The notes beneath the pieces are model-generated. The model ran no database searches. It was not told the DNA's origin and worked only from the letters and a program-made list of their open reading frames with translations. A program made the position numbers and the translations under genes. A stretch of 64,000 nucleotides of DNA from Minisyncoccota bacterium (GTDB lineage: Bacteria > Patescibacteriota > Minisyncoccia > Phycocordibacterales > Phycocordibacteraceae). The stretch's first letter is position 1. Each line of letters opens with the position of its first letter. Shown piece after piece: positions 226 through 47,918 of this stretch. The stretch spans positions 6,878-70,877 of the forward strand of contig JALHQL010000003.1 in the NCBI GenBank assembly GCA_022841985.1, in the 5' to 3' direction.

Positions 226-239
226 TTATAATTATTCGT

Positions 240-686: not shown

Positions 687-707
687 ACACTGTAGTATGA
701 TGGGGGC

Positions 708-1451: not shown

Positions 1452-1474
1452 AATCGGCGGCATATACTTTCAGT

Positions 1475-2021: not shown

Positions 2022-2054
2022 CATTTACTTGACGATGAAGCCGCCAAGGGGATG

Positions 2055-5458: not shown

Positions 5459-5461
5459 TCC

Positions 5462-12924: not shown

Positions 12925-13012
12925 TCTGTATCGGATGAGTTGTTAGTTATCCACATAATGCAGCACAAGTCGTAGGTTCTTTTCGCACGGTACCTATATA
13001 CTGTAACCATAA

Positions 13013-13333
13013 ATGAACGACAATTCAGAACCTTTTTTTGGAACCAGGTCGAAGATACTAGTAGGTATTGTAATTATGCTTTTCGTTCTGTGGCTCTGGA
13101 TGAGTTGGCTTCAAGGGGTGTTCCCGTTCTCGTCAGGCGGCACTGTCACAACATCGGAAAAAATAGAACAGCAGCTATCAGAAAAAGATGTGCTTGGTTC
13201 TCTCACGTCATCTGCCCCCTCCTCCACGACGCCGAGCCCTTCAGTACTCGAAAGCCTTACTCCAACCTCGAAAAAGGGAAATGCAGCGTCCGCCGATACC
13301 TCAGTGCTTGACTCACTAACTTCAACAGAATAA
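13013..13333 (+). CDS. Small membrane-anchored S/T-rich hypothetical protein
   Basis: 106 aa with an N-terminal TM segment and an S/T/P-rich tail carrying a three-fold VL(G/E/D)SLT motif. Confidence 0.35.
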   Translation: MNDNSEPFFGTRSKILVGIVIMLFVLWLWMSWLQGVFPFSSGGTVTTSEKIEQQLSEKDVLGSLTSSAPSSTTPSPSVLESLTPTSKKGNAASADTSVLDSLTSTE

Positions 13334-13337
13334 CAAC

Positions 13338-14468: not shown

Positions 14469-14489
14469 AAATTAAATAGTACATTATCT

Positions 14490-15188: not shown

Positions 15189-15245
15189 GAGAATCGCTCA
15201 TATTACCGACCCTGTTTATAGAAATTATTGATACATTGGAACTAA

Positions 15246-15431
15246 ATTTCTGATCGTGTCGATGCTTCGTGTGCAGCGGGCGAGACTATGACCGGGGCTA
15301 GTTGTCGTGGTGTAGACACCTGCTCTGGCAGTGATTCCTCTGCCTATGGCGGATACCTGACGGATGCTGGAATTGTTTGCTCAACTCAAACCTGTACAAC
15401 CCACACAGCGTATGTTCGTTGCTGCAGGTAA
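15246..15431 (+). pseudogene. In-frame remnant homologous to the Cys-rich C-terminal domain of the 34049..34609 paralog
   Basis: It is in the same frame as 14490..15188 but separated by 57 nt carrying TAA/TAG/TAA/TGA stops. It translates to ...ETMTGASCRGVDTCSGSDSSAYGGYLTDAGIVCSTQTCTTHTAYVRCCR. The paralog has EAMTGGGCNCQDTASGGDSSAYGGYPSGNGWTCPNTTASGCGRNTAYVRCVSY. Confidence 0.35.
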
Positions 15432-15543
15432 GTTCCGAGGATCTGTAGTGGTTAGTTAGAAGAAGTGATATAGTCTAGCCGCACCTGCCCCTCCATGGGC
15501 AGGCGGCTGTGCCTCTGTCAGCACACTATTTTTATAGAATCGT

Positions 15544-18255: not shown

Positions 18256-19483
18256 ATTCAATTTGCCAGATGTGCCCGGTGTGTATCTCTTTAAACAGGG
18301 GCGTAAGGTCCTGTATGTTGGCAAGGCGACCTCGCTGCGCGATCGGGTGCGGTCGTATTTCGATGATGATCTGATAGCAACTCGAGGACCGCGAGTAGTC
18401 GATATGGTGACAAAAGCTGATCGCGTCGTGTATGAGACAACGCCGACCGTGCTTGAGGCATTGGTGCGTGAAGCTGCGCTCATCCGCCTCTATCATCCGC
18501 CAGCAAACACTGAGGGAAAAGATGATAAGACTTTTCTCTATACGGTTATTACATACGAAGAGATTCCACGGGTGCTTATCATGCGCGGCAAGGATATAGA
18601 TTTCAAGGCAAAACATACAACCGATGGACAGAAAATTAAAGCTTTTTATGGTCCATTTCCTTCTGGAACACAGTTGCGTGAGGGTCTCCGACTCATACGG
18701 CGTATCTTTCCATTTTTTGATACTGAAAAGCCAATCGGCACGAAGAGTAAGCATCAGACAGCCAAGATAGAATTCAATACACAGATTAGACAATATCCAC
18801 GAGTATTTTCAGTACAAGAGTATAGTCGTACGATACGGCACGTCATGCTTTTTTTAAGTGGCCGCGGGAAAGAGTTGCGGGCAACACTAGAGAAAGATAT
18901 GCATCGCGCGGCTAAAGAGGAACGTTTCGAGGATGCATCTGCTGCGAGACGCGAACTATTTGCACTTGATCATATTCAGGACGTTTCGCTCATCAAGGAC
19001 GAGCGGCTTGAGGATGCTCGGGAAAAACAAGGGAGCGCCCGTATCGAAGCCTATGATACTGCGCACCTTTCGGGTACGAATGCTATCGGGGTGATGACGG
19101 TCATACTTGGTGGCGTACCAAGTAAGAAAGAGTATCGAACGTTCCGTATACGCGGGGTACAGAAGAACGATGATATCGCGTCTTTGAAAGAAATACTTTC
19201 ACGTCGGCTCGGTCACCCAGAGTGGCAATTGCCGCAAGCGATAGTGGTGGATGGTGGGACGACGCATAAAAAAGCCGCGGAGGGTATCCTCAAAGAGGCA
19301 GGAGTCAACAATATCCCGGTTGTTGCTGTGGTAAAGGATGAACGCCATCGTCCGCGTGAGGTTATTGGCGCGCAACGTGCTTGTGTCACTGAAGCGGATG
19401 CTGTATTGGCCAATAGCGAAGCGCATCGCTTCTCTCTCGCACGCCATCGAGCAGCTCGTTCACGAAATATACGAGTGAGGTAA
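18233..19483 (+). CDS. uvrC: Excinuclease ABC subunit C, short form lacking the C-terminal (HhH)2 domain
   Basis: Start at ATG 18233, overlapping the uvrA stop by 23 nt. The track ORF from 18110 is a frame artefact. Contains GIY-YIG (PDVPGVYLFKQGRKVLYVGKATSLRDRVRSYF), the UvrBC helix (ERFEDASAARRELFALDHI) and an RNase H-like domain (EAYDTAHLSGTNAIGVMTV). 416 aa versus about 600 typical. Confidence 0.8.
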   Translation: MQKNELHKFNLPDVPGVYLFKQGRKVLYVGKATSLRDRVRSYFDDDLIATRGPRVVDMVTKADRVVYETTPTVLEALVREAALIRLYHPPANTEGKDDKTFLYTVITYEEIPRVLIMRGKDIDFKAKHTTDGQKIKAFYGPFPSGTQLREGLRLIRRIFPFFDTEKPIGTKSKHQTAKIEFNTQIRQYPRVFSVQEYSRTIRHVMLFLSGRGKELRATLEKDMHRAAKEERFEDASAARRELFALDHIQDVSLIKDERLEDAREKQGSARIEAYDTAHLSGTNAIGVMTVILGGVPSKKEYRTFRIRGVQKNDDIASLKEILSRRLGHPEWQLPQAIVVDGGTTHKKAAEGILKEAGVNNIPVVAVVKDERHRPREVIGAQRACVTEADAVLANSEAHRFSLARHRAARSRNIRVR

Positions 19484-26334: not shown

Positions 26335-26367
26335 GTGTTTTTAAGTCGGGACCCACTGCTCGATTAT

Positions 26368-29202
26368 ATGGGGTATGACCACAGCGAAATAGAGAAAAAA
26401 GCCCAAGAGAAATGGGCGACCTTGAATCTGTATGAGACAGATCTCAAAGATGACTCAAAAGAGTCGTACTATCTTCTTTTTGAGTTCCCTTATCCCTCAG
26501 GCGATCTACATATCGGGCATTGGTATGCCTACGCGATAACCGATGTCTACGCGCGTCTATTGCGTATGCGCGGGAAAAACGTTCTATTTCCGATAGGGTT
26601 TGATGCATTCGGTTTGCCAGCGGAAAATGCCGCGATGCGGAATGGCGCCGATCCAGCCATATGGACAAGAGCGAATATCGAGCGGATGAAGACACAGATC
26701 CGCTCGATGGGCACCTCGGTCGATTGGTCGAAAGAAATCATTACCTGCGATCCAAGTTACTACCAGTGGACGCAATGGCTTTTTGGGAAGCTTTTCGAAC
26801 ATAAACTCGCGGAGCATCGCGAGGCAGCGGTCAAATGGTGTCCGAAAGACCAAACAGTACTCGCCAACGAGCAGGTCGTTGACGGTTGCTGCGAACGATG
26901 TGGCACGGCGGTCGAGGAGAAACGGCTTACGCAGTGGTTTCTTAAGATTACTGACTACGCGGAGCGGCTTCTCACAGGCCTCGATGCGCTTTCGTGGCGC
27001 GAGGAAATAAAAGAGGCGCAGCGGGCCTGGATTGGGAAGAGCGAGGGCGCCTACCTCACGTTTCCAATTGTCAGTCGCGACGAGAAGATAAAAGTATTTA
27101 CCACACGACCGGACACTCTCTTCGGCGCGACCTACGTCGTACTTGCACCCGAACATCCTCTTATTGAAGGGTTTCGTAAATCCCTCATGAATGCGGACGA
27201 GGTATTTGAATATATCAAAGCGACGACGAAAAAGACCGAACGGGAACGCAGTGAAAATAAAGAGAAAACAGGTGTGAAGCTCGAAGGTATTTCAGCTATC
27301 AATCTCGCAACTAAAGAAGAGATTCCGGTGTATATTGCCGACTACGTCCTCGCGTCCTATGGTACTGGCGCCGTCATGGCCGTTCCTGCGCACGATGAAC
27401 GCGACTTCGAATTCGCAAGAGAAATGAAGCTTCCTATCAAGGAAGTAATACTGCCTGAACGCATCGACAAGAGAAATCCACCACTACCAGGCAAGGAGAG
27501 TATTGCGCGTAGAAATGTACATGCATTTGTTCGCGATCCAAAGACCGGGAAGATCTTATGCTTGCGCTGGAAAAAACATCCATGGATTACCTTTCCTATG
27601 GGCGGAATTGAGGAAGGGGAAGATGTCATCGGGGCTGCAAAACGAGAAATCAAGGAAGAAACCGGCTATACGCATCTTAAAAATCCGAGAGTGCTTGGTG
27701 GAGAAGTGCGTGCAGAATATTTTGCTGCTCATAAGGACCAGAATAGGATCTCATTTACAACACTTGTCGCATTTGATCTGAAAGACGACAAGCAAGTGGC
27801 TATTGCATCCGAGGAATCAGATGCTCATGAAGTGTTTTGGGCTGATCCTAGTGAAGTAACCGCTGCGCACATGACACACGCTGAGATGGATGTATGGCTC
27901 ACTCGACTTGCACATGAAAAAGAAGGTTCTGCGTTTACGGAATCAGGGGTATTGGCCAACTCAGGTGAGTTTAATGGCAGACGAAGTGAGGAGGTGAAAT
28001 GGGAAATTGTGCAATTCGTCGGTGGAGAAAGAACGACCCAGTACCGCCTGCGTGATTGGCTCATTTCTCGACAGCGCTATTGGGGTTGTCCGATACCAAT
28101 TGTTTACGACCCTGAAGGGAAGCCGCACGTTGTCCCCCCTGAGCATCTGCCATGGCTCTTGCCGACTGATGTGGACTTCAAGCCCACAGGTAAAGCGCCG
28201 CTCGCTTCTTCAAAAGAATTACAGGAGCGCGTTACACGTATTTTTGGCGAAGGATGGACACCGGAATATGACACGCTCGATACGTTTATGGACTCTTCAT
28301 GGTATTTTCTCCGCTATCTTGATCCGAAAGACGCTCATGATTTCTCTGATAGTGTGCTTATGAAGAAGTGGCTGCCAATCAACCGATACTCCGGGGGAAG
28401 TGAGCATACTACGATGCACCTCCTCTATGCGCGTTTCTTCATGAAAGCGCTCTACGATCTCGCACTTGTGCCGGTTGAGGAACCATTTATCGAGCGCTTC
28501 AATCGCGGACTCATCATGGGTCCCGATGGACAGAAAATGAGCAAGTCAAAAGGGAATGTCATTAATCCAGATGATTTCGTGAAAGAATATGGTGCGGATG
28601 CAGTGCGTATGTACCTCGCCTTTATTGGTCCTTACAACGAGCCCGGAAGTTATCCTTGGAATCTAGACGGCGTTGCGGCTATACGAAAATTTCTTGAACG
28701 AATTATACGTCTTGTCGAGCGAGTACAGGACATGAGCGAAATTCGTTCGACGCTGGCACTGGCACTTGCCCGGGCGAGCCACAAAGTTTCGGAAGACGGT
28801 GACAAGTTTAAGTTCAATACCAGTGTCGCAGCTCTTATGATACTTATGAATGAATTTGAGACTGCCACGATTGTTCCGAAATCTGCTTTTGCCTCTCTTG
28901 TGATCATGCTTGCGCCTTTTGCTCCGCATCTTGCTGAGCATCTTTGGGAGCGAATTGGAGGAAAGGGGAGTGTGCATCAAGCCGCATGGCCTGTCTTTCC
29001 TCAAGTAATCACTAATGAATACGAAGTCGTAGTGCAGGTAAACGGCAAACGACGTGGTTCGATACTGCTGGCTATCGACGCGACTGAATCAGATGCTGTT
29101 ATTGCCGCTCGCGCAGTGCCGACTGTAGAGGTATCTCTTGGTGGAAAGGAGCCTCGACGCGTTGTCTATGTAGCGGGTAAAATCGTCAATCTTGTGGTGT
29201 AA
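26368..29202 (+). CDS. leuS: Leucine--tRNA ligase carrying an inserted NUDIX hydrolase domain
   Basis: Start at ATG 26368. The track uses GTG 26335. Motifs are HIGH (PSGDLHIGHWYAY), CP1 editing domain (TTRPDTLFGATYVVLAPEHPL ... GTGAVMAVPAHDERDFEFA), KMSKS (GQKMSKSKGNV) and the C-terminal tRNA-binding region. A perfect Nudix box GGIEEGEDVIGAAKREIKEETGY lies inside a ~140-aa insert between the editing domain and VLANSGEFNG. Confidence 0.9.
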   Translation: MGYDHSEIEKKAQEKWATLNLYETDLKDDSKESYYLLFEFPYPSGDLHIGHWYAYAITDVYARLLRMRGKNVLFPIGFDAFGLPAENAAMRNGADPAIWTRANIERMKTQIRSMGTSVDWSKEIITCDPSYYQWTQWLFGKLFEHKLAEHREAAVKWCPKDQTVLANEQVVDGCCERCGTAVEEKRLTQWFLKITDYAERLLTGLDALSWREEIKEAQRAWIGKSEGAYLTFPIVSRDEKIKVFTTRPDTLFGATYVVLAPEHPLIEGFRKSLMNADEVFEYIKATTKKTERERSENKEKTGVKLEGISAINLATKEEIPVYIADYVLASYGTGAVMAVPAHDERDFEFAREMKLPIKEVILPERIDKRNPPLPGKESIARRNVHAFVRDPKTGKILCLRWKKHPWITFPMGGIEEGEDVIGAAKREIKEETGYTHLKNPRVLGGEVRAEYFAAHKDQNRISFTTLVAFDLKDDKQVAIASEESDAHEVFWADPSEVTAAHMTHAEMDVWLTRLAHEKEGSAFTESGVLANSGEFNGRRSEEVKWEIVQFVGGERTTQYRLRDWLISRQRYWGCPIPIVYDPEGKPHVVPPEHLPWLLPTDVDFKPTGKAPLASSKELQERVTRIFGEGWTPEYDTLDTFMDSSWYFLRYLDPKDAHDFSDSVLMKKWLPINRYSGGSEHTTMHLLYARFFMKALYDLALVPVEEPFIERFNRGLIMGPDGQKMSKSKGNVINPDDFVKEYGADAVRMYLAFIGPYNEPGSYPWNLDGVAAIRKFLERIIRLVERVQDMSEIRSTLALALARASHKVSEDGDKFKFNTSVAALMILMNEFETATIVPKSAFASLVIMLAPFAPHLAEHLWERIGGKGSVHQAAWPVFPQVITNEYEVVVQVNGKRRGSILLAIDATESDAVIAARAVPTVEVSLGGKEPRRVVYVAGKIVNLVV

Positions 29203-29251: not shown

Positions 29252-30331
29252 ATGGTCAAGTCTATCCAGACAAAAAAGGAGCGGAAGGAGGGCATAATCG
29301 TACCCTCTAACTTTTCCTTTGATAGTGCCGCGCTTGTAAAAAGTCTTTTGGCTTCTGCACCGGAGCGAGCGCGCGAAGTTCTTATTCGGCGTTTCGGTCT
29401 TGGCAGTAATCCCACTCGCGAAACGCTCGAGGCGATAGGCGATCGTTCGAGTATCACCCGTGAACGTGTCCGACAGATCGAGGCGGCTGGACTTGATGCG
29501 ATACGGGCAAGTAAGGCTTTCGCCGAGGCGAAAAAATCATTTGAGGAGATTGTTCAATATGTAGGTACTCTTGGCAGAGTCGTGCCTGAAGAAGAGTTGT
29601 TTGTTTTGCTTGGCAAAGATGAGAAGACTCGCAATCGGTTTCGTTTTCTTCTCATGATTGATTCGGCATTTTTCCGCGAGCGCGAGACGAACGATTTTCT
29701 TGCGCGTTGGCATATCGATCACACGACCGCGAAACATATTCACGATGCGCTTTCAAAACTTTATGCATCGCTTTCTGATACAGATGTTGTTTCCGAAGGA
29801 AAGATGCTCGATCTTTTCCTCGAGGAACTCAAGGGCGTGAATGACGCATACAAGAATGAAGAGGTGCTAAAGCGTTGGCTCTCTCTGTCAAAGCACATCA
29901 GTAGCAATCCGCTCGCCGAGTGGGGTCGTGTGACGGCTCCCGCAATTCGTATCAAAGGTATTCGTGATTATGCCTATCTTGCGGTAAAACGTCAGGGTTC
30001 TCCAATGCATTTCTCCGAGGTTGCTTCAACCATCGGCTCGATTTTCTCAAAGAAAGCACACATCGCAACGACGCATAATGAGCTTATTAAAGATCCACGC
30101 TTCGTGCTTGTAGGTCGCGGACTCTATGCGCTCACCGAGTGGGGTTATACGCCGGGTGTTGTGCGCGACGTCATTCGTGAGGCACTCAAGGAAGAGGGTC
30201 CGATGAAGAAGGATGAGATCGTCAAGCACGTAAAGAAAGCACGTTTCGTGAAGGACAATACCATTCTTGTGAATTTGAACGATCCGCGCTATTTCAAGCG
30301 CCTTAAAGACGGACGATATTCAGCTGTTTAA
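29252..30331 (+). CDS. DNA-binding protein with an N-terminal sigma-70 region-4-like HTH and a C-terminal HARE-HTH/RpoE(delta)-like winged helix
   Basis: The N-terminus ETLEAIGDRSSITRERVRQIEAAGLDAIR is a region-4 HTH. The C-terminus SPMHFSEVASTIGS...KDPRFVLVGRGLYALTEWGY resembles the HARE-HTH of RNA polymerase delta subunit. Confidence 0.45.
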   Translation: MVKSIQTKKERKEGIIVPSNFSFDSAALVKSLLASAPERAREVLIRRFGLGSNPTRETLEAIGDRSSITRERVRQIEAAGLDAIRASKAFAEAKKSFEEIVQYVGTLGRVVPEEELFVLLGKDEKTRNRFRFLLMIDSAFFRERETNDFLARWHIDHTTAKHIHDALSKLYASLSDTDVVSEGKMLDLFLEELKGVNDAYKNEEVLKRWLSLSKHISSNPLAEWGRVTAPAIRIKGIRDYAYLAVKRQGSPMHFSEVASTIGSIFSKKAHIATTHNELIKDPRFVLVGRGLYALTEWGYTPGVVRDVIREALKEEGPMKKDEIVKHVKKARFVKDNTILVNLNDPRYFKRLKDGRYSAV

Positions 30332-30358
30332 AAAACGACGCCACCAGCGTCGTTTTTT
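30331..30358 (+). terminator. Rho-independent terminator
   Basis: aaaaacgacgc cacca gcgtcgtttttt, directly after the stop of the HTH protein gene. Confidence 0.6.
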
Positions 30359-30553
30359 ACTACCAAGCGAGCTGAGTAACAAATGAATGTCTTCATTCAT
30401 TTGTTCGAGGCGAACGCCGGGAGAAAAGCTTCTTTACTACCAAGCGAGCTGAGTAACAAATGAATGTCTTCATTCATTTGTTCGAGGCGAACGCCGGGAG
30501 AAAAGCCTCTTTACTACCAAGCGAGCTGAGTAACAAATGAATGTCTTCATTCA
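30358..30553. repeat. Tandem direct repeat, 77-bp unit x ~2.5, each unit with a perfect 12-bp-arm palindrome
   Basis: The unit tactaccaagcgagctgagtaacaaatgaatgtcttcattcatttgttcgaggcgaacgccgggagaaaagc(t/c)tcttt recurs at 30358, 30435 and 30512. The third copy is truncated after ...gaatgtcttcattca. Each unit contains aacaaatgaatg-tctt-cattcatttgtt. Confidence 0.8.
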
Positions 30554-32936: not shown

Positions 32937-33971
32937 ATGGATGTACGAGGGGAAAATATATACGTAGGCCTTTCGGGAGGCGTTGATTCTGCTGTTTCAG
33001 CAGCGCTTTTGGTGCGCGCTGGGGCAAAAGTAACGGGTGTATTTATCAAGGGATGGTATCCGCCAGGACTGCCCTGTACTTGGGCGAGTGAGCGCAGGGA
33101 TGCGATGCGGGTCGCAGCACGGCTCAAGATACCGTTCCGTACGCTCGACGCAAGCACTGAGTATAAAAAGAGTGTCATTGACTATCTGCTCGCCGAATAT
33201 CGTGCTGGGCGCACGCCGAATCCGGACATCATGTGCAACAAGGAAGTAAAGTTCGGTGCATTTTATCAGTATGCGAAATCTCTCGGAGCGGACACTATCG
33301 CGACGGGGCACTATAGGAGCGGCGAGAAAGACCAGAGCTATTTCCTCTCTGCTGTGCCAAAAGAAATTTTAGCCGCTACAGTATTTCCGGTAGGGAATAT
33401 GGAGAAGAGCGAGGTGCGTGCACTTGCGAAACGATTTAATTTGCCGGTGGCTCGGAAGAAAGATAGCCAGGGAGTCTGTTTTCTCGGGAGCGTATCGATT
33501 GAAGAATTCTTGAAAAGTGAATTTGGCGTTCAGCCCGGATATGCCAAAAATGAAAAGGGCAATATCGTTGGTCAACATGATGGAGTTCTTCTCTTCACGC
33601 TTGGACAACGTATTGCTCTGCGAGAGACGAACGAAGCCGGTCCATGGTTTGTTCTTAGGAAAGATGTCGAGAGAAATGAGCTCACGGTAGGGAAAACACG
33701 GTCTGGAAGCATCGAGAATGTGTCCGGGGAAATTTCGTTCAGTAATGCCAATTGGTTCACTGAACCGATTGGTGCCGTAGAGGCGCAATATCGTTATCGA
33801 GGTCCCCGTGTGCAAGGATATATTAAAGAAAATTCTTTTGTTAGCAGCGAGCTGCTTCCTGAAATCCCTACTCCCGGACAATCCATTGTTTTCTACCAAA
33901 AAAACGAATTAGTCGGAGGAGGAATTATTAATGTATTCCCTGGAAAAACTGACTTTCACAGAAATTCATAG
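32937..33971 (+). CDS. mnmA: tRNA-specific 2-thiouridylase MnmA
   Basis: 344 aa. PP-loop IYVGLSGGVDSAVSAALL, catalytic Cys context, ATGHY motif and a C-terminal beta-barrel. Confidence 0.85.
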   Translation: MDVRGENIYVGLSGGVDSAVSAALLVRAGAKVTGVFIKGWYPPGLPCTWASERRDAMRVAARLKIPFRTLDASTEYKKSVIDYLLAEYRAGRTPNPDIMCNKEVKFGAFYQYAKSLGADTIATGHYRSGEKDQSYFLSAVPKEILAATVFPVGNMEKSEVRALAKRFNLPVARKKDSQGVCFLGSVSIEEFLKSEFGVQPGYAKNEKGNIVGQHDGVLLFTLGQRIALRETNEAGPWFVLRKDVERNELTVGKTRSGSIENVSGEISFSNANWFTEPIGAVEAQYRYRGPRVQGYIKENSFVSSELLPEIPTPGQSIVFYQKNELVGGGIINVFPGKTDFHRNS

Positions 33972-34048
33972 TTCAAATGGCATTGTAAACAAAACTTATC
34001 AACACGCCGCGTCTACTTTCCCAAGAAAGCATCGTATACTTCGAGCAT

Positions 34049-34609
34049 ATGACCAACCGCATCCTTCCACAAATCGCCCTCGTTACAGGAACTCTTCTAT
34101 TCTCTCTCGGGATTCAGACGTATGCCCAAACATGGAGTGCCCCAACAGCCTCTCCACCAAATAGCAATGCGTACGCCCCACTCAATACTAGTCCCGCAGC
34201 ACAAATAAAAACTGGTGGTCTTCTTCTCAACACAGGTGGCGCAATCAACGGTCTCATCGTGCAAAACGGCAATGTCGGCATTGGAACGACAAGTCCCACT
34301 GCAAAACTCGATGTTCAAGGATACGTGAAGGGAACGGGTCTGTGCATAGGCAATGATTGCAGAACTTCATGGGCAGCACCGAGATACACGACTCGTAATT
34401 CGGCAACTGTTCAAAACCGTAGTGTATCCGTTGCGTGCCAGATTAATGAGGCTATGACGGGAGGGGGATGCAATTGTCAGGATACTGCCAGTGGTGGGGA
34501 TTCTTCGGCATATGGAGGATATCCGTCTGGTAACGGATGGACTTGCCCGAATACTACTGCTAGTGGATGCGGAAGAAATACAGCATACGTACGTTGCGTT
34601 AGCTACTAA
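34049..34609 (+). CDS. Secreted hypothetical protein, paralog of 14490..15188 with a Cys-rich C-terminal domain
   Basis: 186 aa. Signal peptide MTNRILPQIALVTGTLLFSLGIQTYAQ. Shared N-terminal module through GNVGIGTTSPTAKLDV. The C-terminal CNCQDTASGGDSSAYGGYPSGNGWTCPNTTASGCGRNTAYVRC matches the remnant at 15246..15431. Confidence 0.5.
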   Translation: MTNRILPQIALVTGTLLFSLGIQTYAQTWSAPTASPPNSNAYAPLNTSPAAQIKTGGLLLNTGGAINGLIVQNGNVGIGTTSPTAKLDVQGYVKGTGLCIGNDCRTSWAAPRYTTRNSATVQNRSVSVACQINEAMTGGGCNCQDTASGGDSSAYGGYPSGNGWTCPNTTASGCGRNTAYVRCVSY

Positions 34610-34847
34610 TTGTACTAAGTCAACGTGTTGTGGTAAGCGCTTGGTATCAAGGTCCAGCATCTCACCGAGTATAGCCTTCTCGTATCGATTCATACGGTGT
34701 GCCCCTTTACGGACGAGATTCTCAATTGCCTGAACACTAGAATCATACCGCGCCTCTTGCGCTTTCAATGAGCTTCGCTGACCACAGAAAGTATCAACAA
34801 CCCGATACTAACGTACACGGGTCAGCGAGAAATGGTATTATTGTCCC

Positions 34848-35258
34848 ATGAACCATACTCGTCTTCTTGTTGCTGCAACTATCATTGCACTGGTGGTCTT
34901 TGTTAGTTTCGTGCTTTCAGTCCCACGCACGAATGATACTGAGGAAACAGTGACGACGCAGAGTGTTCCGATGACACCTCTTGTCACGATACGCGACTCG
35001 TTTAAAAAAGGCTTGCACACGATTACCGGCTCGATTGAAGCCCCAAACGCTTGTACTAGCGTGAGCGCAGAAGCAAGTGTTACGGGTGATGCGACAAGTA
35101 CACAGAGTATACTCGTTGCGATTGCCATGTCCGCCGATGAGGGTATTTGTCTCCAGCTCCCGACTTCCGCTACTTTCGAGACATCGGTCGAAGCTCCGGC
35201 AGGTCTGCCGCTCATTGTAACGGTGAATGGAACAACGGCGACTACAAGTGCTCCGTAA
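34848..35258 (+). CDS. Hypothetical membrane-anchored/secreted protein
   Basis: 136 aa with an N-terminal TM/signal anchor and a T/S-rich extracytoplasmic domain. No recognised domain. Confidence 0.35.
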   Translation: MNHTRLLVAATIIALVVFVSFVLSVPRTNDTEETVTTQSVPMTPLVTIRDSFKKGLHTITGSIEAPNACTSVSAEASVTGDATSTQSILVAIAMSADEGICLQLPTSATFETSVEAPAGLPLIVTVNGTTATTSAP

Positions 35259-35278
35259 CTTTTTAATTACAAAACTCC

Positions 35279-36148
35279 ATGACATCGTCAGTCGTTATTG
35301 TCAAAGCCGACGGATCAAGTGAATTATTTGATCCGGAACGGCTCGTGAGCTCGCTCCGGCGCTCTGGTGCGGGCGAGCATGCCGCAGAGCGTATCGCAGA
35401 GACAATTACGAATACGATCGCACCAGGCACTTCCTCAAAGGAAGTCTATACGCGGGCCTTTGCGCTTTTGCGCAAGGAGGCGCGTCCGGTTGCCGCTCGC
35501 TATGCGTTGCGGCGCGCGCTTCTTGAGCTCGGTCCGACCGGCCATCCATTTGAGGACTTCATCTCGCATCTCTACCGTGCAGAGGGTTGGCAAGTTGAAA
35601 CACGTAAGATAATAAAAGGAAAATGCGTATCGCACGAAGTCGATTTCTATGCATCGAATCGGGAGCGGAATACTTTTATTGCTGCCGAATTGAAGTATCA
35701 TAATGATCCTGGTTATAAAACCGATTTAAAAGTCGCACTCTACGTCAAGAGTCGTTTTGATGATATTTTCAATTGTGATTCCGCTGTCCGCTTGTGCCCG
35801 ATTGACCGCGGTCTTTTGGTTACCAATACTAAGTTTACCTCCGAAGCTATCGCTTATGCAGAATGTTCGGGTGTAGAACTCCTCGGGTGGGGGTATCCGG
35901 CAGAGAATGGTCTTTTTGCTCGTATGAGCCGTGCACATGTGTACCCTATTACTACATTGACCTGCCTTTCGAACGCTGAAAAACGGATCCTTATCGAGAG
36001 TGGCATTATTGCAGTTGATGAAATCATACGAGATCATCGTGCGCTTGATCCGCTGCGTCTCACTCCGGAGCGAGTGGGCAAGATCCTTGCTGAAGCAGAA
36101 GGTCTTCTTGAGCTTTCAAACGGTCTTCATGGTACTGTTCCCGTATGA
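35279..36148 (+). CDS. ATP-cone domain fused to a restriction-endonuclease-like (Mrr-cat, PD-(D/E)xK) domain
   Basis: The N-terminus VVIVKADGSSELFDPERLVSSL...SSKEVYTRAFALLRKEARPVAARYALRR matches the ATP-cone consensus (VIKRDGxxExFDxxKI...YxxYR). The middle EGWQVETRKIIKGKCVSHEVDFYA...IAAELKYHN gives D...E-x-K nuclease core residues. Confidence 0.55.
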   Translation: MTSSVVIVKADGSSELFDPERLVSSLRRSGAGEHAAERIAETITNTIAPGTSSKEVYTRAFALLRKEARPVAARYALRRALLELGPTGHPFEDFISHLYRAEGWQVETRKIIKGKCVSHEVDFYASNRERNTFIAAELKYHNDPGYKTDLKVALYVKSRFDDIFNCDSAVRLCPIDRGLLVTNTKFTSEAIAYAECSGVELLGWGYPAENGLFARMSRAHVYPITTLTCLSNAEKRILIESGIIAVDEIIRDHRALDPLRLTPERVGKILAEAEGLLELSNGLHGTVPV

Positions 36149-36612
36149 AAGGATACTTCTCCGTAAACTCTTTTATCGCCGGCATTATGTTCGGCATCCT
36201 GCTCACAGGCGCTTGGTTCTTTAGCGACAGCTTTACTCCGGCACCATCCCCCTCTTCCTCTGCTGATACGACGATTGAAATGCAAGAAGGAGGCTCAGTA
36301 TCCGTTGGGCCCCAGTCTGCGGGCAATACGGCTGTCGTCGAGTCGGTTACTGTGCCACCACCAGGTGTGTGGGTCGCAGTGCGGGAAGTCGTGGACGATG
36401 AACTTGGGAATGTGCTAGGTGCCGCACGGGTGAAAGGTCCAAGAAGCAACGTTTCCATTCCTCTCTTACGCGCAACCGAACCGGGACGAACATATGCAAT
36501 TCAATTATATCGAGATGATGCGGGGGGAGTGTTCGATGTAACGACGAACAGTATATACGTTGATTTTGATACGGGGATGCGTGTGGTTACCTATTTCACA
36601 ACCGCTGAGTGA
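36145..36612 (+). CDS. Hypothetical secreted/membrane-anchored protein
   Basis: 155 aa with an N-terminal hydrophobic segment. Overlaps neighbours by 4 nt on both sides. No recognised domain. Confidence 0.35.
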   Translation: MKGYFSVNSFIAGIMFGILLTGAWFFSDSFTPAPSPSSSADTTIEMQEGGSVSVGPQSAGNTAVVESVTVPPPGVWVAVREVVDDELGNVLGAARVKGPRSNVSIPLLRATEPGRTYAIQLYRDDAGGVFDVTTNSIYVDFDTGMRVVTYFTTAE

Positions 36613-37406
36613 TAGCTATGGCATTCGGCGGGTATAAACTCAAATGGGAGAAAGGAAGATTTAATCCATCCTCACGGGAACCGTATGTGATTTCTCGATC
36701 GAAGATAGATCGATTTCTCGAGTGCCCCCGCTGCTACTGGCTCGAAGCTCGCTACGGCATCGGTCGTCCTGACTCTCCGCCCTTTACGCTCAACAACGCG
36801 GTTGACGAACTATTTAAACGCGAGTTCGACGTCCGCAGAGCTGCAGGCGAGCCGCATCCGCTCATGAAGAAGTATGGCATCGACGCGATACCGTATGCGC
36901 ACGAGAAGATTGAGGAGTGGCGTGACGCGCTTAAGCGTGGGGTACGGTATCACGATACGGAAAACAATCTCATTGTACGTGGCGGTATTGATGATGTTTG
37001 GGTAAATCCCACTGGGGAGCTCCATGTCGTCGATTATAAAGCGACGGCTGGGAAGAAGGAGGTTACGCTTGAAGATGAGTGGAAGATTCAGTACAAGCGT
37101 CAGGTCGAAGTCTATCAATGGCTCTTTCGTCGGAACGGGTTTACGGTCTCACCGATCGCATACTTTGTCTACGCAAACGGGTTGAACGACAAAGAAGCGT
37201 TCGATGGAAAACTTGAATTCGAAATTACTATTCTGCCGTACGAGGGTGATGATTCTTGGGTACCAGACACGCTTAAGGTTTTGAAAGCTTGCTTGGTTTC
37301 CGATGCCATCCCTAAGTCCGGCGCGCATTGCGAATATTGCCCATATCGCGAAAATGCCGGTAAAATGCTACTCACTCTTCATCAGAATGGCAAAAAGAAG
37401 AAGTAA
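36609..37406 (+). CDS. PD-(D/E)xK nuclease family protein, Cas4/RecB-like with probable Fe-S cysteines
   Basis: 265 aa. N-terminal ISRSKIDRFLECPRCYW, core GGIDDVWVNPTGELHVVDYKAT plus QVEVYQ, and C-terminal HCEYCPY. Four Cys lie in the positions used by Cas4/AddB-type 4Fe-4S clusters. Confidence 0.6.
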   Translation: MIAMAFGGYKLKWEKGRFNPSSREPYVISRSKIDRFLECPRCYWLEARYGIGRPDSPPFTLNNAVDELFKREFDVRRAAGEPHPLMKKYGIDAIPYAHEKIEEWRDALKRGVRYHDTENNLIVRGGIDDVWVNPTGELHVVDYKATAGKKEVTLEDEWKIQYKRQVEVYQWLFRRNGFTVSPIAYFVYANGLNDKEAFDGKLEFEITILPYEGDDSWVPDTLKVLKACLVSDAIPKSGAHCEYCPYRENAGKMLLTLHQNGKKKK

Positions 37407-37417
37407 AAACTCTGGTG

Positions 37418-38086
37418 TTATAGTTTTGCAGTTGAAGTCGCAAGAGCTCCTTTTGGAAATTGCTTTTCAAGGTCGGCCAGGGAAGTAAATCCGTAGAACA
37501 CTTTACCGTTGATGACAAAAGCGGGCAGGGAATCCTGCACCTTGGTAACTTGGATGAGAGTTTTTAGGGCGCCAAGATCGAGATTGTAATCAAAAGAGTA
37601 GACACGTAGTTTTGGATACGTATCGCGCAAGTAGGAGAGAGCATAGCCCGCTTTATCGCAGTCGTCGCAGTCGCCGGCATTGCTGTAGAAATAAAGCACC
37701 ATCACAGGCGGTTTTGCACCGCATGCGGCAGCAAGCTGTTTGGTAATGAGATAGTCACGAATTTCAAGCAGAGAGTATTGATTTTTCAGTTGCAATACCT
37801 GAGGATTATCACTACCGAGTTGATTTTCGGTGTATGCGAGCCGGGTACCCAAATCTGCGAGTTCACCGGTCAGAGTAGTTGAGGATGCGGTACTGTCACA
37901 GGGCGCCGCTGTGAGCAAAGAAAACTGTGTATCAAGAGAGAGTATCTCTATCGAAATTTTGTCCTGTATTGCCGAAATCTCGGTAATACGAGCTTGGTTC
38001 AAATAATTAATAGCGTATGCAACCGTACTCACGAGTGCAATCGTGATACCGAGTGCTATCAGGGCATTTCGTGCAGCAAGGGGCAT
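37418..38086 (-). CDS. Membrane-anchored thioredoxin-fold-like protein (CDDC motif)
   Basis: 222 aa with an N-terminal TM anchor. The C-terminal FYSNAGDCDDCDKAGYAL...AFVINGKVF resembles a thioredoxin/DsbA-like fold with a CxxC. Confidence 0.4.
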   Translation of the reverse strand: MPLAARNALIALGITIALVSTVAYAINYLNQARITEISAIQDKISIEILSLDTQFSLLTAAPCDSTASSTTLTGELADLGTRLAYTENQLGSDNPQVLQLKNQYSLLEIRDYLITKQLAAACGAKPPVMVLYFYSNAGDCDDCDKAGYALSYLRDTYPKLRVYSFDYNLDLGALKTLIQVTKVQDSLPAFVINGKVFYGFTSLADLEKQFPKGALATSTAKL

Positions 38087-38089
38087 AGC

Positions 38090-39328
38090 TTAGTAGCGCC
38101 AACCGCGGCGTTTGCCGCGAGCGACGTCGCTTGTTGCCCGTATGAGCCACAACGGTGCGATAAACGCGTAGAGAAGAGCATAGGAAGCGATGCTAAACGG
38201 CAGATTTCCCGGTGTCTTTGAGATGTTCTTTCCGATCGTAATCAAGGTAAATGAGGCGAGCATAGTAGTGAAGGCGAGAAGCAAATACACACTTGCGGGG
38301 AAATAGAACCAATCGAACGAACCGTGTGGCAGTATTGCGTACGAGAGTGGAATGCCGGCGCGGATCTCAATCGCGGCAGAAGCGTGTTGGACAATTTTGA
38401 AAAGCACAATCGAAAAAAGCATGATACCGCTGCCAATCGAAAGCAGAGCGCTTGGCAGAACGAGCATGCCGAGAGTCCCATGCTTATAACTACCAATGAG
38501 TCCGCGGTATTCCCCCAGAATATTACGGAGGAATCCAGAGGTCCAACGTGTGCGCTGTTTAATGAGTTTAAAGAGGGTGTCGGGCGCCTTAGTATACACA
38601 CGTGCGCGCGGTGCATTCTCAATTTTATATCCTGCCTGTTGAATGCGAAGCGCCATTTCCATATCCTCAGTCTGATGCCCATATCGGAAACCGCCGAGCT
38701 CGTTCACAATAGAGCGTCGATAGAAAGAAAAAGGTCCTGGGGTAACGTAAAGACCGTTAAGCGAGGAGAGTGAATGTCGAAGCGAGATACCGAAAGTGTA
38801 TTCGGCATTTTGCATATATTGCAATATGTTATTTGGACGGTGTACTGACATGGCAGCGGTTGCCGCAGCGACGTTTGCGTCCACGAAGCAGGCCACTATC
38901 TCGCGTAACGCATCTGGCTCGACGAAAGAGTCGGCGTCGAGGCAGCCGACAATTTCAGCCTGAGTTGCTGCAATACCAGCATTTAGCGCTGTGTGCTTAC
39001 CGCCATTTTCTTTGTGGATAATACGCACGTGTGGGTGATGTGCGAATTTCTGCATGACGGACGAAGTTGCATCGGTGGAACCGTCGTTAACAAGAATGAT
39101 TTCAAGCTTCTCCTTTGGGTATTCAAGAGCAAGGAGCGATTCGCAAGTGGACGCGAGAGTCGTCATTTCATTCCAGCAGGGTACGATGACAGCAACGGTA
39201 GGAATTGTTGTGTTTAGTGTCCGCGCGCGGGCTTCGCGCGCGGGCTTCGAGAGTAATGTCACTAGGATGAACGACTCAACGAATATAGCGACAAAAAGGA
39301 AAGGATATGCGAACGTTTCGAGACCCAT
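38090..39328 (-). CDS. Family 2 glycosyltransferase (processive, cellulose-synthase/PgaC-like topology)
   Basis: 412 aa with N- and C-terminal TM helices. Contains VAVIVPCWNE, the DXD-type motifs DGSTDAT and DADS, and QRTRWTSGFL (QxxRW). Confidence 0.75.
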   Translation of the reverse strand: MGLETFAYPFLFVAIFVESFILVTLLSKPAREARARTLNTTIPTVAVIVPCWNEMTTLASTCESLLALEYPKEKLEIILVNDGSTDATSSVMQKFAHHPHVRIIHKENGGKHTALNAGIAATQAEIVGCLDADSFVEPDALREIVACFVDANVAAATAAMSVHRPNNILQYMQNAEYTFGISLRHSLSSLNGLYVTPGPFSFYRRSIVNELGGFRYGHQTEDMEMALRIQQAGYKIENAPRARVYTKAPDTLFKLIKQRTRWTSGFLRNILGEYRGLIGSYKHGTLGMLVLPSALLSIGSGIMLFSIVLFKIVQHASAAIEIRAGIPLSYAILPHGSFDWFYFPASVYLLLAFTTMLASFTLITIGKNISKTPGNLPFSIASYALLYAFIAPLWLIRATSDVARGKRRGWRY

Positions 39329-44287: not shown

Positions 44288-44977
44288 ATGGCACGCCACA
44301 CAACAGTTACTCCCGTACAAGAAAAAACTCTTTCATTCTTAAAACACTACATCGGCAAGAATGGCCAAGCGCCGACGATGGTCGAGCTCGGCAAAGAATT
44401 TAAATTGCGGTCGCTCCGCAGCGTCACGCAGCGATTAGAAAGACTCGAGCGCAAAGGCCTCATCAAACGAGACCGTTTCCAGCACCGGAGCATTCAGATT
44501 CTTAATGGCGACAGCTCAAATGTCCCGTCCGGTACCATTCAGGTGCCAGTTATTGCTTCGGCAGGATGCGACGCAATGGAAGTCTATGCGCAAGACGAAT
44601 TCGGAGAGTACATTCTCGTCGACAAAAATCTTATCAATGTACATACAAACATTGCCGCTATCAAGGCGGTCGGCGACAGTATGCAAGACGCAGGCATCAG
44701 AAATGGCGACTATGTCATCGTGGAGGTGACTGAAGCTGTTGAAAATGGCGACCGCGTTGTCGCTATCGTGGGAAACATGGCGGTTATCAAGCAATACAAG
44801 AAGGCCGACGGTGTCGTGTTCTTGAATCCTGAAAACAAAAGCGGTGCCTATCACCCAATTATCGTGGGGCAGGAAGATTCGAAGATTTTCGGTAAAGTTT
44901 TGAGCATAATTCCGGGCAGCGAATGGGTCGACGACATCAAGATTGACTACTATCCCGGGTATTCGCCGAAAAAGTAA
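44288..44977 (+). CDS. lexA: LexA repressor (winged-helix DNA-binding domain + S24 self-cleaving peptidase domain)
   Basis: 229 aa. The N-terminal winged-helix is TLSFLKHYIGKNGQAPTMVELGKEF. The C-terminal S24 domain has the Ser-Lys dyad context VGDSMQDAGI and VIKQYKK. Confidence 0.8.
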   Translation: MARHTTVTPVQEKTLSFLKHYIGKNGQAPTMVELGKEFKLRSLRSVTQRLERLERKGLIKRDRFQHRSIQILNGDSSNVPSGTIQVPVIASAGCDAMEVYAQDEFGEYILVDKNLINVHTNIAAIKAVGDSMQDAGIRNGDYVIVEVTEAVENGDRVVAIVGNMAVIKQYKKADGVVFLNPENKSGAYHPIIVGQEDSKIFGKVLSIIPGSEWVDDIKIDYYPGYSPKK

Positions 44978-46238: not shown

Positions 46239-47918
46239 ATGACCCAAGGCGAGGCGATTACGATACTGAAGACGGGCGCAAACGTATTCCTCACCGGCGA
46301 GCCGGGGAGTGGCAAGACGCATACGATAAATACCTTTGTAGAATGGCTCCGCAACTCAGGCATTGAGCCCTCAGTGACTGCAGCAACCGGAATCGCTGCA
46401 ACACATGTCGGCGGCATGACACTACACTCCTGGAGCGGTATCGGCATTAGCGAATCGCTTTCAAAGGCCGATGTGGATCGCATTGCAAGCAAAGAACATA
46501 TCGCTCGTCGAATTCAAAAAGCAAAGGTGCTGATCATAGAAGAAATTTCAATGCTCTCAGCCTCGACGTTTGAAATGGCGGATTCTATTTGTCGAGAAGT
46601 ACGAAGAACTGAGAAACCCTTTGGTGGACTTACCGTGATTCTTGTGGGCGATTTCTTTCAGCTGCCGCCGGTCTCACGCGATCGCGAAGTTAAGTTTGCA
46701 TACTCTTCGCCAGTCTGGCGTGACTTAAGTTTACTCACTTGCTACCTTACCGAACAGTATCGGCAAGTCGACAGTGAATTTCTGAGTGTGCTCTCAGCGA
46801 TACGCTCCGGAAATGTCGAGGAACTGCACTATGAAGAGTTGCTGCGGCGACATAGGGATCCGGTAGAGCTCCCGCCAGGAGCACCAAAACTCTTCTCGCA
46901 CAATGCCGATGTGGATCGGATTAATAACACCGAGCTTGCCAAGCTCAAGAGCGCTTCACGGAAGTTCAGTATGAGTTCAAAAGGGAAAGATGCGATGGTC
47001 GAGGGACTCAAGCGAGGTTGCCTCTCGCCTGAAATTTTGGAGTTAAAAGAGGGTGCGGCAGTGATGTTTACTAAGAATTCTCCGCAAGGGAAGTTCGTCA
47101 ACGGGACGCTCGGTATCGTCGTCGGTTGGGGCGCCGATAGTATGCCGATCGTAGAAACAAAGGACGGCATAAAAATATCTACCGAACCGATGGAGTGGCA
47201 ACTCGAGGAGCAGGGGAAGGTAAAGGCGAGCATCTCTCAAATACCCTTACGGCTTGCCTATGCGATGACCGTGCATAAGAGCCAAGGGATGAGTATGGAC
47301 GCCGCAATCATGGATCTCTCAAAAGCATTTGAATACGGTCAGGGATACGTTGCGCTCTCGCGTGTACGGCGACTCTCGGGGGTGTTCCTTACTGGTCTTA
47401 ATGCACGTGCACTTGAAGTGCATCCGGAAATTTTGGAAAAGGACAAAGATTTTCGTGCTGCGTCTGACGCGGCGCGCGATGCCTTTGCAGAGATGCCTGC
47501 GGCAGAACCAATCGGCATGCAAAAGAAGTTTATAAAGGCGATGGGTGGAGCATGGTTTGAAGCAGAGAATGATAAAAAAAGGTCTTCTCGAGAGGCTCGA
47601 GGCAAACCTGCGACAGGCTTGCCAGGAAGACTTGCCGAGACACTTTCTGCTGCGCGTGATGGCAAATCACTCGCTGACGTTGCCAAAACTCGAGCACTCG
47701 CGGTTTCAACTATCGTAAAGCACTTGGAAGAGCTTTCAGAAATAGGAAAGCTTGTGCGCACTGATTTCGCGCATCTTTTACCGGATGTGGGCGCAACCGA
47801 TGAGATACATGAGGCACTTACCACAACCGGTAGGGAACCTCTTTCTCCAGTATTCCATGCTCTCGGCGGGCGGTATTCTTTTGAAACAATTCGTCTCGTT
47901 CGCCTCGCCCGAAATTAA
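46239..47918 (+). CDS. Pif1/RecD-like superfamily 1 ATP-dependent DNA helicase with a C-terminal HTH-like region
   Basis: 559 aa. Walker A is LTGEPGSGKTHTI. Walker B/motif II is VILVGDFFQLPPV. Motifs V/VI are YAMTVHKSQGMS and GQGYVALSRVR. The C-terminal ~90 aa is helical. Confidence 0.75.
   Translation: MTQGEAITILKTGANVFLTGEPGSGKTHTINTFVEWLRNSGIEPSVTAATGIAATHVGGMTLHSWSGIGISESLSKADVDRIASKEHIARRIQKAKVLIIEEISMLSASTFEMADSICREVRRTEKPFGGLTVILVGDFFQLPPVSRDREVKFAYSSPVWRDLSLLTCYLTEQYRQVDSEFLSVLSAIRSGNVEELHYEELLRRHRDPVELPPGAPKLFSHNADVDRINNTELAKLKSASRKFSMSSKGKDAMVEGLKRGCLSPEILELKEGAAVMFTKNSPQGKFVNGTLGIVVGWGADSMPIVETKDGIKISTEPMEWQLEEQGKVKASISQIPLRLAYAMTVHKSQGMSMDAAIMDLSKAFEYGQGYVALSRVRRLSGVFLTGLNARALEVHPEILEKDKDFRAASDAARDAFAEMPAAEPIGMQKKFIKAMGGAWFEAENDKKRSSREARGKPATGLPGRLAETLSAARDGKSLADVAKTRALAVSTIVKHLEELSEIGKLVRTDFAHLLPDVGATDEIHEALTTTGREPLSPVFHALGGRYSFETIRLVRLARN

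Follow-up and report, generated by a model that had tools for sequence, protein, structure and literature searches.

Do two nuclease genes that lie close together, one of them fused to a nucleotide-sensing domain, form a defence module against phages, or do they belong to the ordinary equipment of the cell? The question is raised by three genes on the plus strand of a 64-kb stretch of DNA (here called the window, meaning the whole stretch that was analysed) from a Paceibacteria-type bacterium that belongs to the CPR (Candidate Phyla Radiation). Gene 1 (35279..36148, 289 amino acids) encodes an ATP-cone joined to a PD-(D/E)xK nuclease, gene 2 (36145..36612, 155 amino acids) a protein of the DUF7282 family, and gene 3 (36609..37406, 265 amino acids) a RecB-family nuclease of the PDDEXK_1 type. 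An earlier note on this DNA had described the same three open reading frames (ORFs), which were verified in position, length and strand, and had read the two nucleases as an architecture of the kind seen in anti-phage defence. The reading favoured here, to which we give a probability of roughly 55%, is a different one: these would be two separately conserved chromosomal nucleases in a co-directional housekeeping array, with gene 1 encoding an adenine-nucleotide-gated nuclease that serves nucleic-acid turnover and nucleotide economy and not defence.

Architecture of the ATP-cone nuclease

The proposed fusion of an ATP-cone to an Mrr-like nuclease was borne out by profile searches and by fold. 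The product of gene 1 matches Mrr_cat (PF04471) at 24.2 bits, above the Pfam cut-off of 21, and its residues 6-79 match the ATP-cone family (PF03477) at 22.8 bits (E = 1.3e-4), which lies below the gathering threshold of 25.8. Although the cone of this particular protein falls short of the threshold, 61 members of a set of 64 diverse relatives (31-44% identity) match PF03477, the best of them with E = 3e-10. Mrr_cat is matched by 60 of the 64 and a third family, AF1548-like_C (PF22357), by 47; the corresponding domain, at residues ~205-280 of gene 1, had been missed earlier, when the first two domains were correctly named. Minor matches in the same set are to Hjc (weakly, 5/64), Card1_endonuc (4/64) and NA-iREase1 (weakly, 4/64). 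Pfam detected no Mrr_N-type domain in the gene 1 product or among the 20 families matched by its relatives.

Fifteen positions are invariant throughout the 64 relatives, namely K9, G12, G85, G88, F91, E92, G114, E120, D122, E137, K139, R159, D162, N183 and P223. Four of the motif contexts in gene 1 are PFEDF around E92, HEVDF around D122, AELKYHN around E137-L-K139 and TNTKF around N183. The nuclease triad that had been proposed from HEVDF (D122) and AAELK (E137, K139) is therefore retained, together with E92, across the whole set, and because all catalytic residues are invariant, the alignment supports a catalytically competent nuclease. In the ATP-cone, which is compact, K9, G12, E15, F17 and K/R21 are conserved in the family, K9 and G12 without exception. 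The canonical motif of the cones in ribonucleotide reductase (RNR) and in the repressor NrdR is K-R-D-G; the motif in gene 1 reads K-A-D-G. On these residues the cone likely binds nucleotides.

Both the nuclease core and the region behind it have a structural counterpart in AF1548 (PDB 1Y88), which aligns to residues 94-276 of gene 1 with E = 4e-21, or E = 1e-51 when the family profile is used. Pfam does not assign PF22357 to the gene 1 product itself, where the C-terminal half of 1Y88 aligns with residues ~205-276. In the AlphaFold2 model the segment at residues ~205-280 is all-helical, with a predicted local distance difference test score (pLDDT) of 73-93 compared with 66.6 for the whole protein. 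Since the model is moderate overall, the argument for the fold leans on the direct sequence match to 1Y88. Searched with Foldseek, the C-terminal two-thirds of the model return 1Y88 as the top match, and the N-terminus returns ATP-cones of RNR and NrdR with a probability of 0.95-1.0 for most of the chains listed; the family profile matches residues 50-127 of NrdR weakly (E = 0.02). The C-terminal helical domain is a putative nucleic-acid-binding module, which we read as helix-hairpin-helix-like.

Proteins of this kind are numerous. Of 2209 homologues detected, the best 120 are full length and 75-95% identical to gene 1, the few named sources among them being called Kaiserbacteria, Parcubacteria or Paceibacterota. 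Clustering at 50% identity gave at least 1075 clusters with E <= 1e-3, of which 402 have E <= 1e-30, and nearly all of these proteins are ~280 amino acids long and cover almost the whole query. Databases cover the family with Pfam domains, RefSeq names and one structural-genomics structure, but it appears functionally uncharacterised: full-text literature searches found no paper describing the fusion or its operon, which agrees with the earlier note.

Gene neighbourhoods within and outside the CPR

Relatives of gene 1 were found in species-representative genomes at least 597 times, and the neighbourhoods compared below are the best 80 by similarity, not a random sample. They comprise 62 CPR (Patescibacteria) and 18 Bacteroidota loci, divided by the annotation of the records and by shared or absent synteny. 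Gene calls in the fetched loci come from a crude longest-ORF heuristic, and the CPR loci share ancestry, so that counts of loci are not counts of independent events.

In two related contigs of 255 kb and 268 kb, gene 1 stands in an array that runs LeuRS, sigma70_r4/HARE-HTH, DUF8128, YceG, MnmA, a small ORF, gene 1, DUF7282 and PDDEXK_1, and continues with an MGMT-like DNA_binding_1 gene (in one of the two), UDG, peptidases and AlaRS. The same gene order was recovered when the search started from homologues of PDDEXK_1. MnmA lies directly upstream of gene 1 in 54 of the 55 CPR loci with enough sequence. Conserved synteny with repair genes had been named beforehand as an outcome that would speak against a defence module, and it is what came out, with MnmA on the upstream side and the MGMT-like gene, UDG and AlaRS on the downstream side. 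PDDEXK_1 follows gene 1 in 31/47 CPR loci with enough sequence, always on the same strand and within 1.7 kb, and where both nucleases were called (33 loci) they are separated by 0 to 3 variable genes such as DUF7282 and MgtC.

Taken over the 62 CPR loci, the proteins resemble those of the window with a median identity of 42% (gene 1), 43% (MnmA), 42% (YceG), 52% (the sigma/HARE-HTH protein) and 53% (PDDEXK_1). In the nearest relatives identity reaches 77-79% for gene 1, compared with 62-67% for MnmA and 59-72% for YceG; no gene of the block is better conserved than gene 1, and sigma/HARE-HTH equals it. When loci are compared pair by pair, the identities of gene 1 rise and fall with those of its neighbours (Pearson r 0.65-0.77), much as housekeeping genes do with one another (0.54-0.75). 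Gene 1 and gene 3 are slowly evolving core genes that evolve no faster than their housekeeping neighbours, and the high conservation, the fixed position in the array and the correlated identities make both nucleases look vertically inherited. Mobile elements hardly carry them. By tblastn, gene 1 was found in none of 50,697 phage records and in 2 of 72,556 plasmids, PDDEXK_1 had no match in the phage records, and a scan of IMG/VR gave no locus for the gene 1 product. The same database holds five contigs with a PDDEXK_1 homologue (48-53% identity); these may be cellular fragments, since each encodes a YceG homologue close by and lacks an ATP-cone gene in the +/-5 kb around PDDEXK_1.

Outside the CPR the company of gene 1 is of another kind. 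A plasmid of Pontibacter actiniarum and one of Criblamydia sequanensis share an annotated operon made up of an ATP cone domain protein, a hydrolase of the metallo-beta-lactamase (MBL) fold, a thymidine phosphorylase family protein and a ribose-phosphate pyrophosphokinase. On the Criblamydia plasmid this operon is flanked by genes for a P-type ATPase, phosphoketolase, glycogen phosphorylase and acetate kinase. Compared with solved structures, the MBL-fold partner matches Ribonuclease TTHA0252, a beta-CASP enzyme, with E = 3e-79; the pyrophosphokinase matches the phosphoribosyl pyrophosphate (PRPP) synthetase 1U9Y with E = 7e-40; and the phosphorylase matches PDB 4GA5/4GA4, titled 'putative thymidine phosphorylase', with E = 1e-104. 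The last structure we take to be the AMP phosphorylase of T. kodakarensis. Bacteroidota genomes and a Chlamydiia contig likewise have a beta-CASP gene directly after gene 1, often behind tandem genes for universal stress proteins (Usp).

An independent set of 80 non-CPR metagenome loci (L100-L179) gave the same picture. A homologue of the beta-CASP RNase lies within 3.5 kb downstream of gene 1 in 35/58 of these loci, and homologues of AMP phosphorylase and PRPP synthetase lie downstream in 14/38 and 12/38, respectively. Usp genes occur upstream in 33/80, a P-type ATPase gene in 19/80 and a GAPDH-like gene in 11/80. The recurrent order is (Usp)-ATP-cone nuclease-beta-CASP-AMP phosphorylase-PRPP synthetase, as seen at positions 1972-6597 of L094, at 6995-11602 of L095 and in the metagenome set, and often a P-type ATPase, a GAPDH-like gene, phosphoketolase or acetate kinase is found close to it.

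A further neighbour was noted in Mariniphaga sediminis (L076, 8902-11361), where a helicase with PIF1, HRDC and HTH_40 domains follows directly downstream of the ATP-cone nuclease. The window has a PIF1-type helicase with a C-terminal HTH_40 domain at 46239-47918, ~9 kb downstream of the nucleases. The occurrence of such a helicase near the ATP-cone nuclease in both genomes may be coincidence.

How might gene 1 then work? By analogy with the cones of RNR and NrdR, its ATP-cone would bind adenine nucleotides, responding to ATP versus dATP or to the adenylate state, and its occupancy would shift the oligomeric state or the packing of the domains and thereby gate the nuclease. The nuclease would be one that cleaves, as the invariant catalytic residues support, and the C-terminal helical domain would hold the nucleic acid. 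Its role would be a controlled turnover of nucleic acids tied to the nucleotide economy and not the killing of invaders. Such a role is suggested by the partners outside the CPR (the TTHA0252-type beta-CASP homologue, the AMP phosphorylase homologue, PRPP synthetase and Usp), and it would suit CPR bacteria because they depend on nucleotide salvage. Paceibacteria cannot make nucleotides de novo. Perhaps gene 3 takes, in the CPR, the slot of a partner exonuclease that beta-CASP holds elsewhere, although this is speculative. PMC5113843 proposes the AMP pathway as a route by which CPR bacteria salvage nucleotides.

A more specific version can be put forward tentatively, as a possibility clearly less probable than the general one. 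The gene 1 family could be an unrecognised nucleotide-pool-gated 'self' nuclease that opens RNA or DNA for recycling when adenylate or dATP runs short. The fragments would pass to a partner exonuclease (beta-CASP in Bacteroidota and Chlamydiota, possibly PDDEXK_1 in Paceibacteria), and what it releases would supply AMP phosphorylase and a salvage based on PRPP. If so, the family would provide the missing upstream step of AMP/pentose-bisphosphate salvage and would serve CPR bacteria that are auxotrophic for nucleotides as a core function for survival. The family appears conserved across the sampled Paceibacteria and could explain how the recycling of their own or acquired nucleic acids is controlled, while the operon outside the CPR offers a concrete hypothesis for culturable Bacteroidota.

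Several points weigh against the turnover reading. The ATP-cone of gene 1 itself stays just under the Pfam cut-off and has Ala in place of Arg10 of K-R-D-G, so its nucleotide binding could differ, and the structural model of the protein is of moderate quality (pLDDT 66.6). None of beta-CASP, AMP phosphorylase and PRPP synthetase is present within +/-8 kb of any CPR locus or in the 64-kb window, and function may have diverged between the CPR and non-CPR branches, which are ~36-48% identical. For this family the ligand, the kind of substrate (DNA or RNA) and the direction of regulation are inferences. As the CPR loci owe their synteny to common descent, 62 loci do not amount to 62 independent observations, and a gene may lie next to housekeeping genes and still serve in defence. 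Lastly, varied defence-type genes upstream of PDDEXK_1 in another lineage leave gene 3 with a small residual association with defence.

The second nuclease and the competing explanations

Gene 3 had been taken for a Cas4-like protein with a DYK/QxExY core and the four-cysteine arrangement of Cas4 and AddB. The core stands, and the cysteine arrangement does not. The product matches PDDEXK_1 (PF12705) at 53.3 bits against a cut-off of 22, and D128, D129, D142, Y143, K144, Q165 and Y169 are invariant in an alignment of 39 sequences. Its invariant cysteines in the 39 homologues are C39, C42, C241 and C244, that is CxxC...CxxC (2+2), and C228 varies. The pattern of Cas4, AddB, Dna2 and Exo5 is C...Cx2Cx5C (1+3). 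The Cas4 profile TIGR00372, a check of the kind suggested earlier, scores 29.2 bits on gene 3 against a cut-off of 65, the Cas4 models of PADLOC are likewise weak, and PF01930 (Cas4) is precomputed for 4 of the 120 closest homologues. The low score and the 2+2 cysteines rule out an assignment to Cas4. As had been reported before, there are no cas genes among the scanned window proteins and no CRISPR-like array in the 64-kb window; the annotated gene tables and clusters of related loci are also devoid of cas genes.

The AlphaFold2 model of gene 3 reaches a pLDDT of 88. Its best fold matches in the PDB are the nuclease domain of AdnA, RecE, lambda exonuclease, MGME1, Cas4 (Pcal_0546, SSO0001) and Exo5, with TM-scores of 0.3-0.5, which places the modelled protein within the DNA-end-processing superfamily and close to no solved member. 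Judged by its motifs, gene 3 is a stand-alone RecB-family enzyme of the exonuclease type with a putative CxxC...CxxC metal site. Its most likely substrates are DNA ends or intermediates of repair, since an MGMT-like gene and UDG usually come next in its relatives. The start of the gene is probably ATG 36618 (262 amino acids) and not GTG 36609, because Met4 is invariant and the homologues begin with 'MA' at this position.

The main rival of the turnover reading is a housekeeping pair for DNA repair or recombination, in which a structure-specific endonuclease (gene 1), its activity set by the ATP/dATP pool, would be joined by a RecB-like end-processing exonuclease (gene 3), both acting alongside the UDG and MGMT-like genes. 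We consider this improbable. The layout of a nuclease with a C-terminal DNA-binding domain resembles XPF/Mus81/Hef or Hjc; the Hjc profile is weakly matched by five of the 64 relatives of gene 1, and some members of the family are labelled 'Holliday junction resolvase-like' by JGI. All of the best fold matches of gene 3 are DNA-end processors. In 20/30 CPR loci the first three genes downstream of PDDEXK_1 include a UDG or MGMT-like gene, and UvrA, UvrB, UvrC and LexA are encoded in the window. However, UDG also follows gene 1 in 8/18 loci that have no PDDEXK_1, so the repair genes may simply share an inherited block, and the UvrABC genes are ~17-25 kb away. Moreover, the partners of gene 1 outside the CPR (an RNase-type beta-CASP protein, AMP phosphorylase, PRPP synthetase, Usp and energy-metabolism genes) are not repair genes.

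Defence is a minor alternative, and a very unlikely one. It would have an ATP/dATP-gated Mrr-like nuclease and a stand-alone Cas4-like nuclease jointly degrade invading DNA. Defence makes use of sensors joined to a PD-(D/E)xK nuclease, the two nucleases lie close together on the same strand in the 31/47 CPR loci mentioned above, and Can2 and Cdn1 appear among the weak fold matches. When PADLOC was run on the 64 relatives of gene 1, the nuclease-domain part alone of ZorD was matched by 24 and that of CARF_PDDEXK by 14. Against this, the gene 1 product has no match in PADLOC or NCBIfam and no relative matches a PADLOC model at full length. Ten neighbours yielded generic domain-level PADLOC matches for two and nothing more, and no defence system was recognised among the window genes scanned. 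The very high conservation, the fixed place in a housekeeping array and the absence from phage records and near-absence from plasmids also argue against it, as do the cysteine pattern of gene 3 and its score below the Cas4 cut-off.

The pairing of the two genes is also looser than a joint module would lead one to expect. Co-occurrence, which had been proposed as a check, was found in the majority of CPR loci, but pairing is not obligate: PDDEXK_1 is near gene 1 in 0/18 Bacteroidota loci and in 0/80 of the non-CPR metagenome loci. The two nucleases are separable, and each exists without the other. Given core conservation, fixed synteny, near-absence from mobile elements and separability, an obligate anti-phage module of two nucleases is not supported.

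In the five IMG/VR contigs, which come from another lineage (L089-L093, ~1-5000 of each), the slot immediately upstream of PDDEXK_1 holds varied defence-type genes. The cargo includes an Eco57I-type methylase with a 948-amino-acid protein, a PHP-SMC-like ATPase and an SNF2 helicase; a further contig combines a fragment of a type I R subunit with an OLD-family ATPase/TOPRIM protein and a UvrD helicase, a set that we read as Gabija-like. The defence genes differ from contig to contig, whereas in three of the five PDDEXK_1 is followed by the same downstream genes, so that PDDEXK_1 looks like the conserved flank of a variable defence island and not like its cargo. For the discovery of defence systems this locus carries a caution, namely that a sensor-nuclease fusion beside a Cas4-like gene is insufficient and that conservation and synteny need to be checked.

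The remaining alternative, a regulator of the NrdR kind in which the ATP-cone loads ATP or dATP and the nuclease-fold and C-terminal domains just bind DNA to control transcription, for example of nucleotide-metabolism genes, is highly improbable: NrdR, which represses by binding DNA when loaded with nucleotide, is the one stand-alone ATP-cone protein that is well understood, the gene 1 family profile weakly matches its cone, and PD-(D/E)xK folds are sometimes inactive DNA binders (with NA-iREase1 weakly matched by four of the 64 relatives), but the four catalytic residues are invariant down to ~31% identity, which is hard to explain without catalysis, Pfam found no Zn-ribbon or helix-turn-helix (HTH) domain in the gene 1 product, and no nrd genes adjoin it in any locus examined.

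The surrounding window and comparison with known systems

The features of the region are collected in the table. The small ORF ahead of gene 1 has a 137-amino-acid homologue at the same position in four close relatives (L001-L004; 54-56% identity by tblastn) and is probably co-transcribed. Gene 2 was described earlier as a short secreted protein overlapping both of its neighbours. A hydrophobic N-terminal stretch is indeed present and the start overlaps the stop of gene 1 by 4 nucleotides (ATGA); the overlap of its end with gene 3 is probably absent, since a start of gene 3 at ATG 36618 removes the 4 nucleotides shared with the DUF7282 stop. The DUF7282 gene was called in just 18 loci overall and elsewhere the slot between the nucleases holds MgtC or is empty, and it is an optional insert that separates gene 1 from gene 3.

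Table. Positions in the window of the genes, domains and motifs around the two nucleases
Feature	Position	Strand	Basis
Small ORF, 136 amino acids	34848..35258	+	hydrophobic N-terminus; no Pfam match
ATP-cone::Mrr_cat (AF1548-type PD-(D/E)xK)::AF1548-like_C protein, 289 amino acids (gene 1)	35279..36148	+	Pfam, 1Y88 alignment, relatives
ATP-cone domain, residues 6-79 of gene 1 product	35294..35515	+	PF03477 at 22.8 bits; K9, G12 invariant
PD-(D/E)xK core, residues ~90-204 of gene 1 product	35546..35890	+	E92, D122, E137, K139, R159, D162, N183
AF1548-like C-terminal helical domain, residues ~205-280 of gene 1 product	35891..36118	+	PF22357 in relatives; 1Y88 alignment
DUF7282 protein, 155 amino acids (gene 2)	36145..36612	+	PF23951 at 32.7 bits
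RecB-family PDDEXK_1 nuclease, 265 amino acids from GTG 36609 (gene 3)	36609..37406	+	PF12705 at 53.3 bits
N-terminal CxxC (C39, C42) of gene 3 product, putative metal site	36723..36734	+	invariant in 39 homologues
Catalytic motifs of gene 3: GGIDD (125-129), D142-Y-K144, Q165-x3-Y169	36981..37115	+	invariant columns
C-terminal CxxC (C241, C244) of gene 3 product, putative metal site	37329..37340	+	invariant in 39 homologues

A scan for sigma-70 promoters and terminators over 33900-38200 gave counts that match shuffled expectation, a repeat scan revealed none that would bound a mobile element, and the Rfam scan of the window returned tRNAs and nothing else. Further genes of the window include LeuRS, YceG, MnmA, a GT2 glycosyltransferase, an FAD oxidase, LexA, UvrABC, TGT and pyruvate kinase; PheS and PheT were assigned from synteny and not by the scan. 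UvrB, UvrA and UvrC, the ORFs of the latter two overlapping, and the LexA repressor are encoded at 10669-19483 and 44288-44977, respectively; both nucleotide-excision repair and a regulator of the SOS type have thus been retained in this small genome.

Some other features of the window may be recorded. In LeuRS (26335-29202) the editing domain is followed directly by an inserted NUDIX domain (residues 392-519, 57.7 bits); the insertion is also found in L001 and L085 (944-952 amino acids) and not in L003 (760 amino acids). Between the sigma70_r4/HARE-HTH and DUF8128 genes, at 30356-30553, lies a 77-nucleotide tandem repeat of 2.6 copies with 99% identity, each unit of which contains a perfect hairpin, AACAAATGAATG-TCTT-CATTCATTTGTT, that matched no Rfam family; a terminator-like hairpin stands ahead of it at ~30330-30358. 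At 2696-8116 two large adjacent ORFs encode proteins of 920 and 884 amino acids, the first with a weak match to the TraG/TraD C-terminal domain (24.8 bits) and the second without a Pfam family, and they may represent a coupling protein pair of type IV secretion or DNA uptake.

Among known systems, the AMP (pentose bisphosphate) pathway of archaea and the CPR touches gene 1 through its operon outside the CPR, which has a close homologue of the T. kodakarensis AMP phosphorylase together with PRPP synthetase. In the CPR loci this link is not seen, and the passages of PMC5113843 that were consulted name no nuclease as a member of the pathway. Gene 3 finds its likeness in the RecB family (Cas4, AddB/AdnA, RecE, lambda exonuclease, MGME1, Exo5), with which it shares the D, D-x-K and QxxxY motifs. 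Its cysteines lie near both termini, where Cas4 bears its cluster ligands, although they form CxxC...CxxC rather than C...Cx2Cx5C and no helicase is fused to it.

For gene 1 the comparison runs in several directions. With the Mrr-type (type IV) restriction endonucleases it has the Mrr_cat catalytic family in common, but Pfam detected no N-terminal DNA-recognition domain of Mrr in it, its distribution is vertical instead of sporadic, and an association with phages, plasmids or defence islands is lacking. The CARF and SAVED fusions of type III CRISPR signalling (Can2, Card1, Cdn1) join, like gene 1, a sensor for a nucleotide ligand to an Mrr-like PD-(D/E)xK effector. In contrast to these, gene 1 has neither a CARF domain nor a CRISPR context and is core and syntenic instead of patchy, and its presumed ligand would be a housekeeping adenine nucleotide in place of the alarm signal cyclic oligoadenylate.

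The closest relative of known structure is AF1548 of Archaeoglobus fulgidus (PF04471 and PF22357), whose nuclease core and C-terminal domain are homologous end to end with those of gene 1 and which shares the E...D...ExK residues and the TNTKF motif. With 199 amino acids AF1548 has no ATP-cone, and the alignment with gene 1 begins at its residue 22-23; being titled 'protein of unknown function' in the PDB, it gives a fold and a family but no mechanism. The part that AF1548 lacks is supplied by the cones of NrdR and RNR, to which the N-terminal ~75 residues of gene 1 belong by Pfam (in 61 of the 64 relatives) and by fold. In RNR and NrdR, as PMC4390871 describes, occupancy by ATP or dATP switches the oligomeric state. 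Gene 1 departs from these proteins in its output, a nuclease instead of a Zn-ribbon DNA binder or a reductase, in its shorter cone with Ala for Arg in K-R-D-G, and in its order, since NrdR has an N-terminal Zn-ribbon followed by the cone while gene 1 has an N-terminal cone followed by the nuclease. Gene 1 combines two known kinds of design, the allostery of the ATP-cone and the fusion of a sensor to a nuclease. If the turnover reading is true, this would be the first ATP-cone to gate a nuclease rather than ribonucleotide reduction or its repressor, and a classic allosteric module would be extended to the turnover of nucleic acids.

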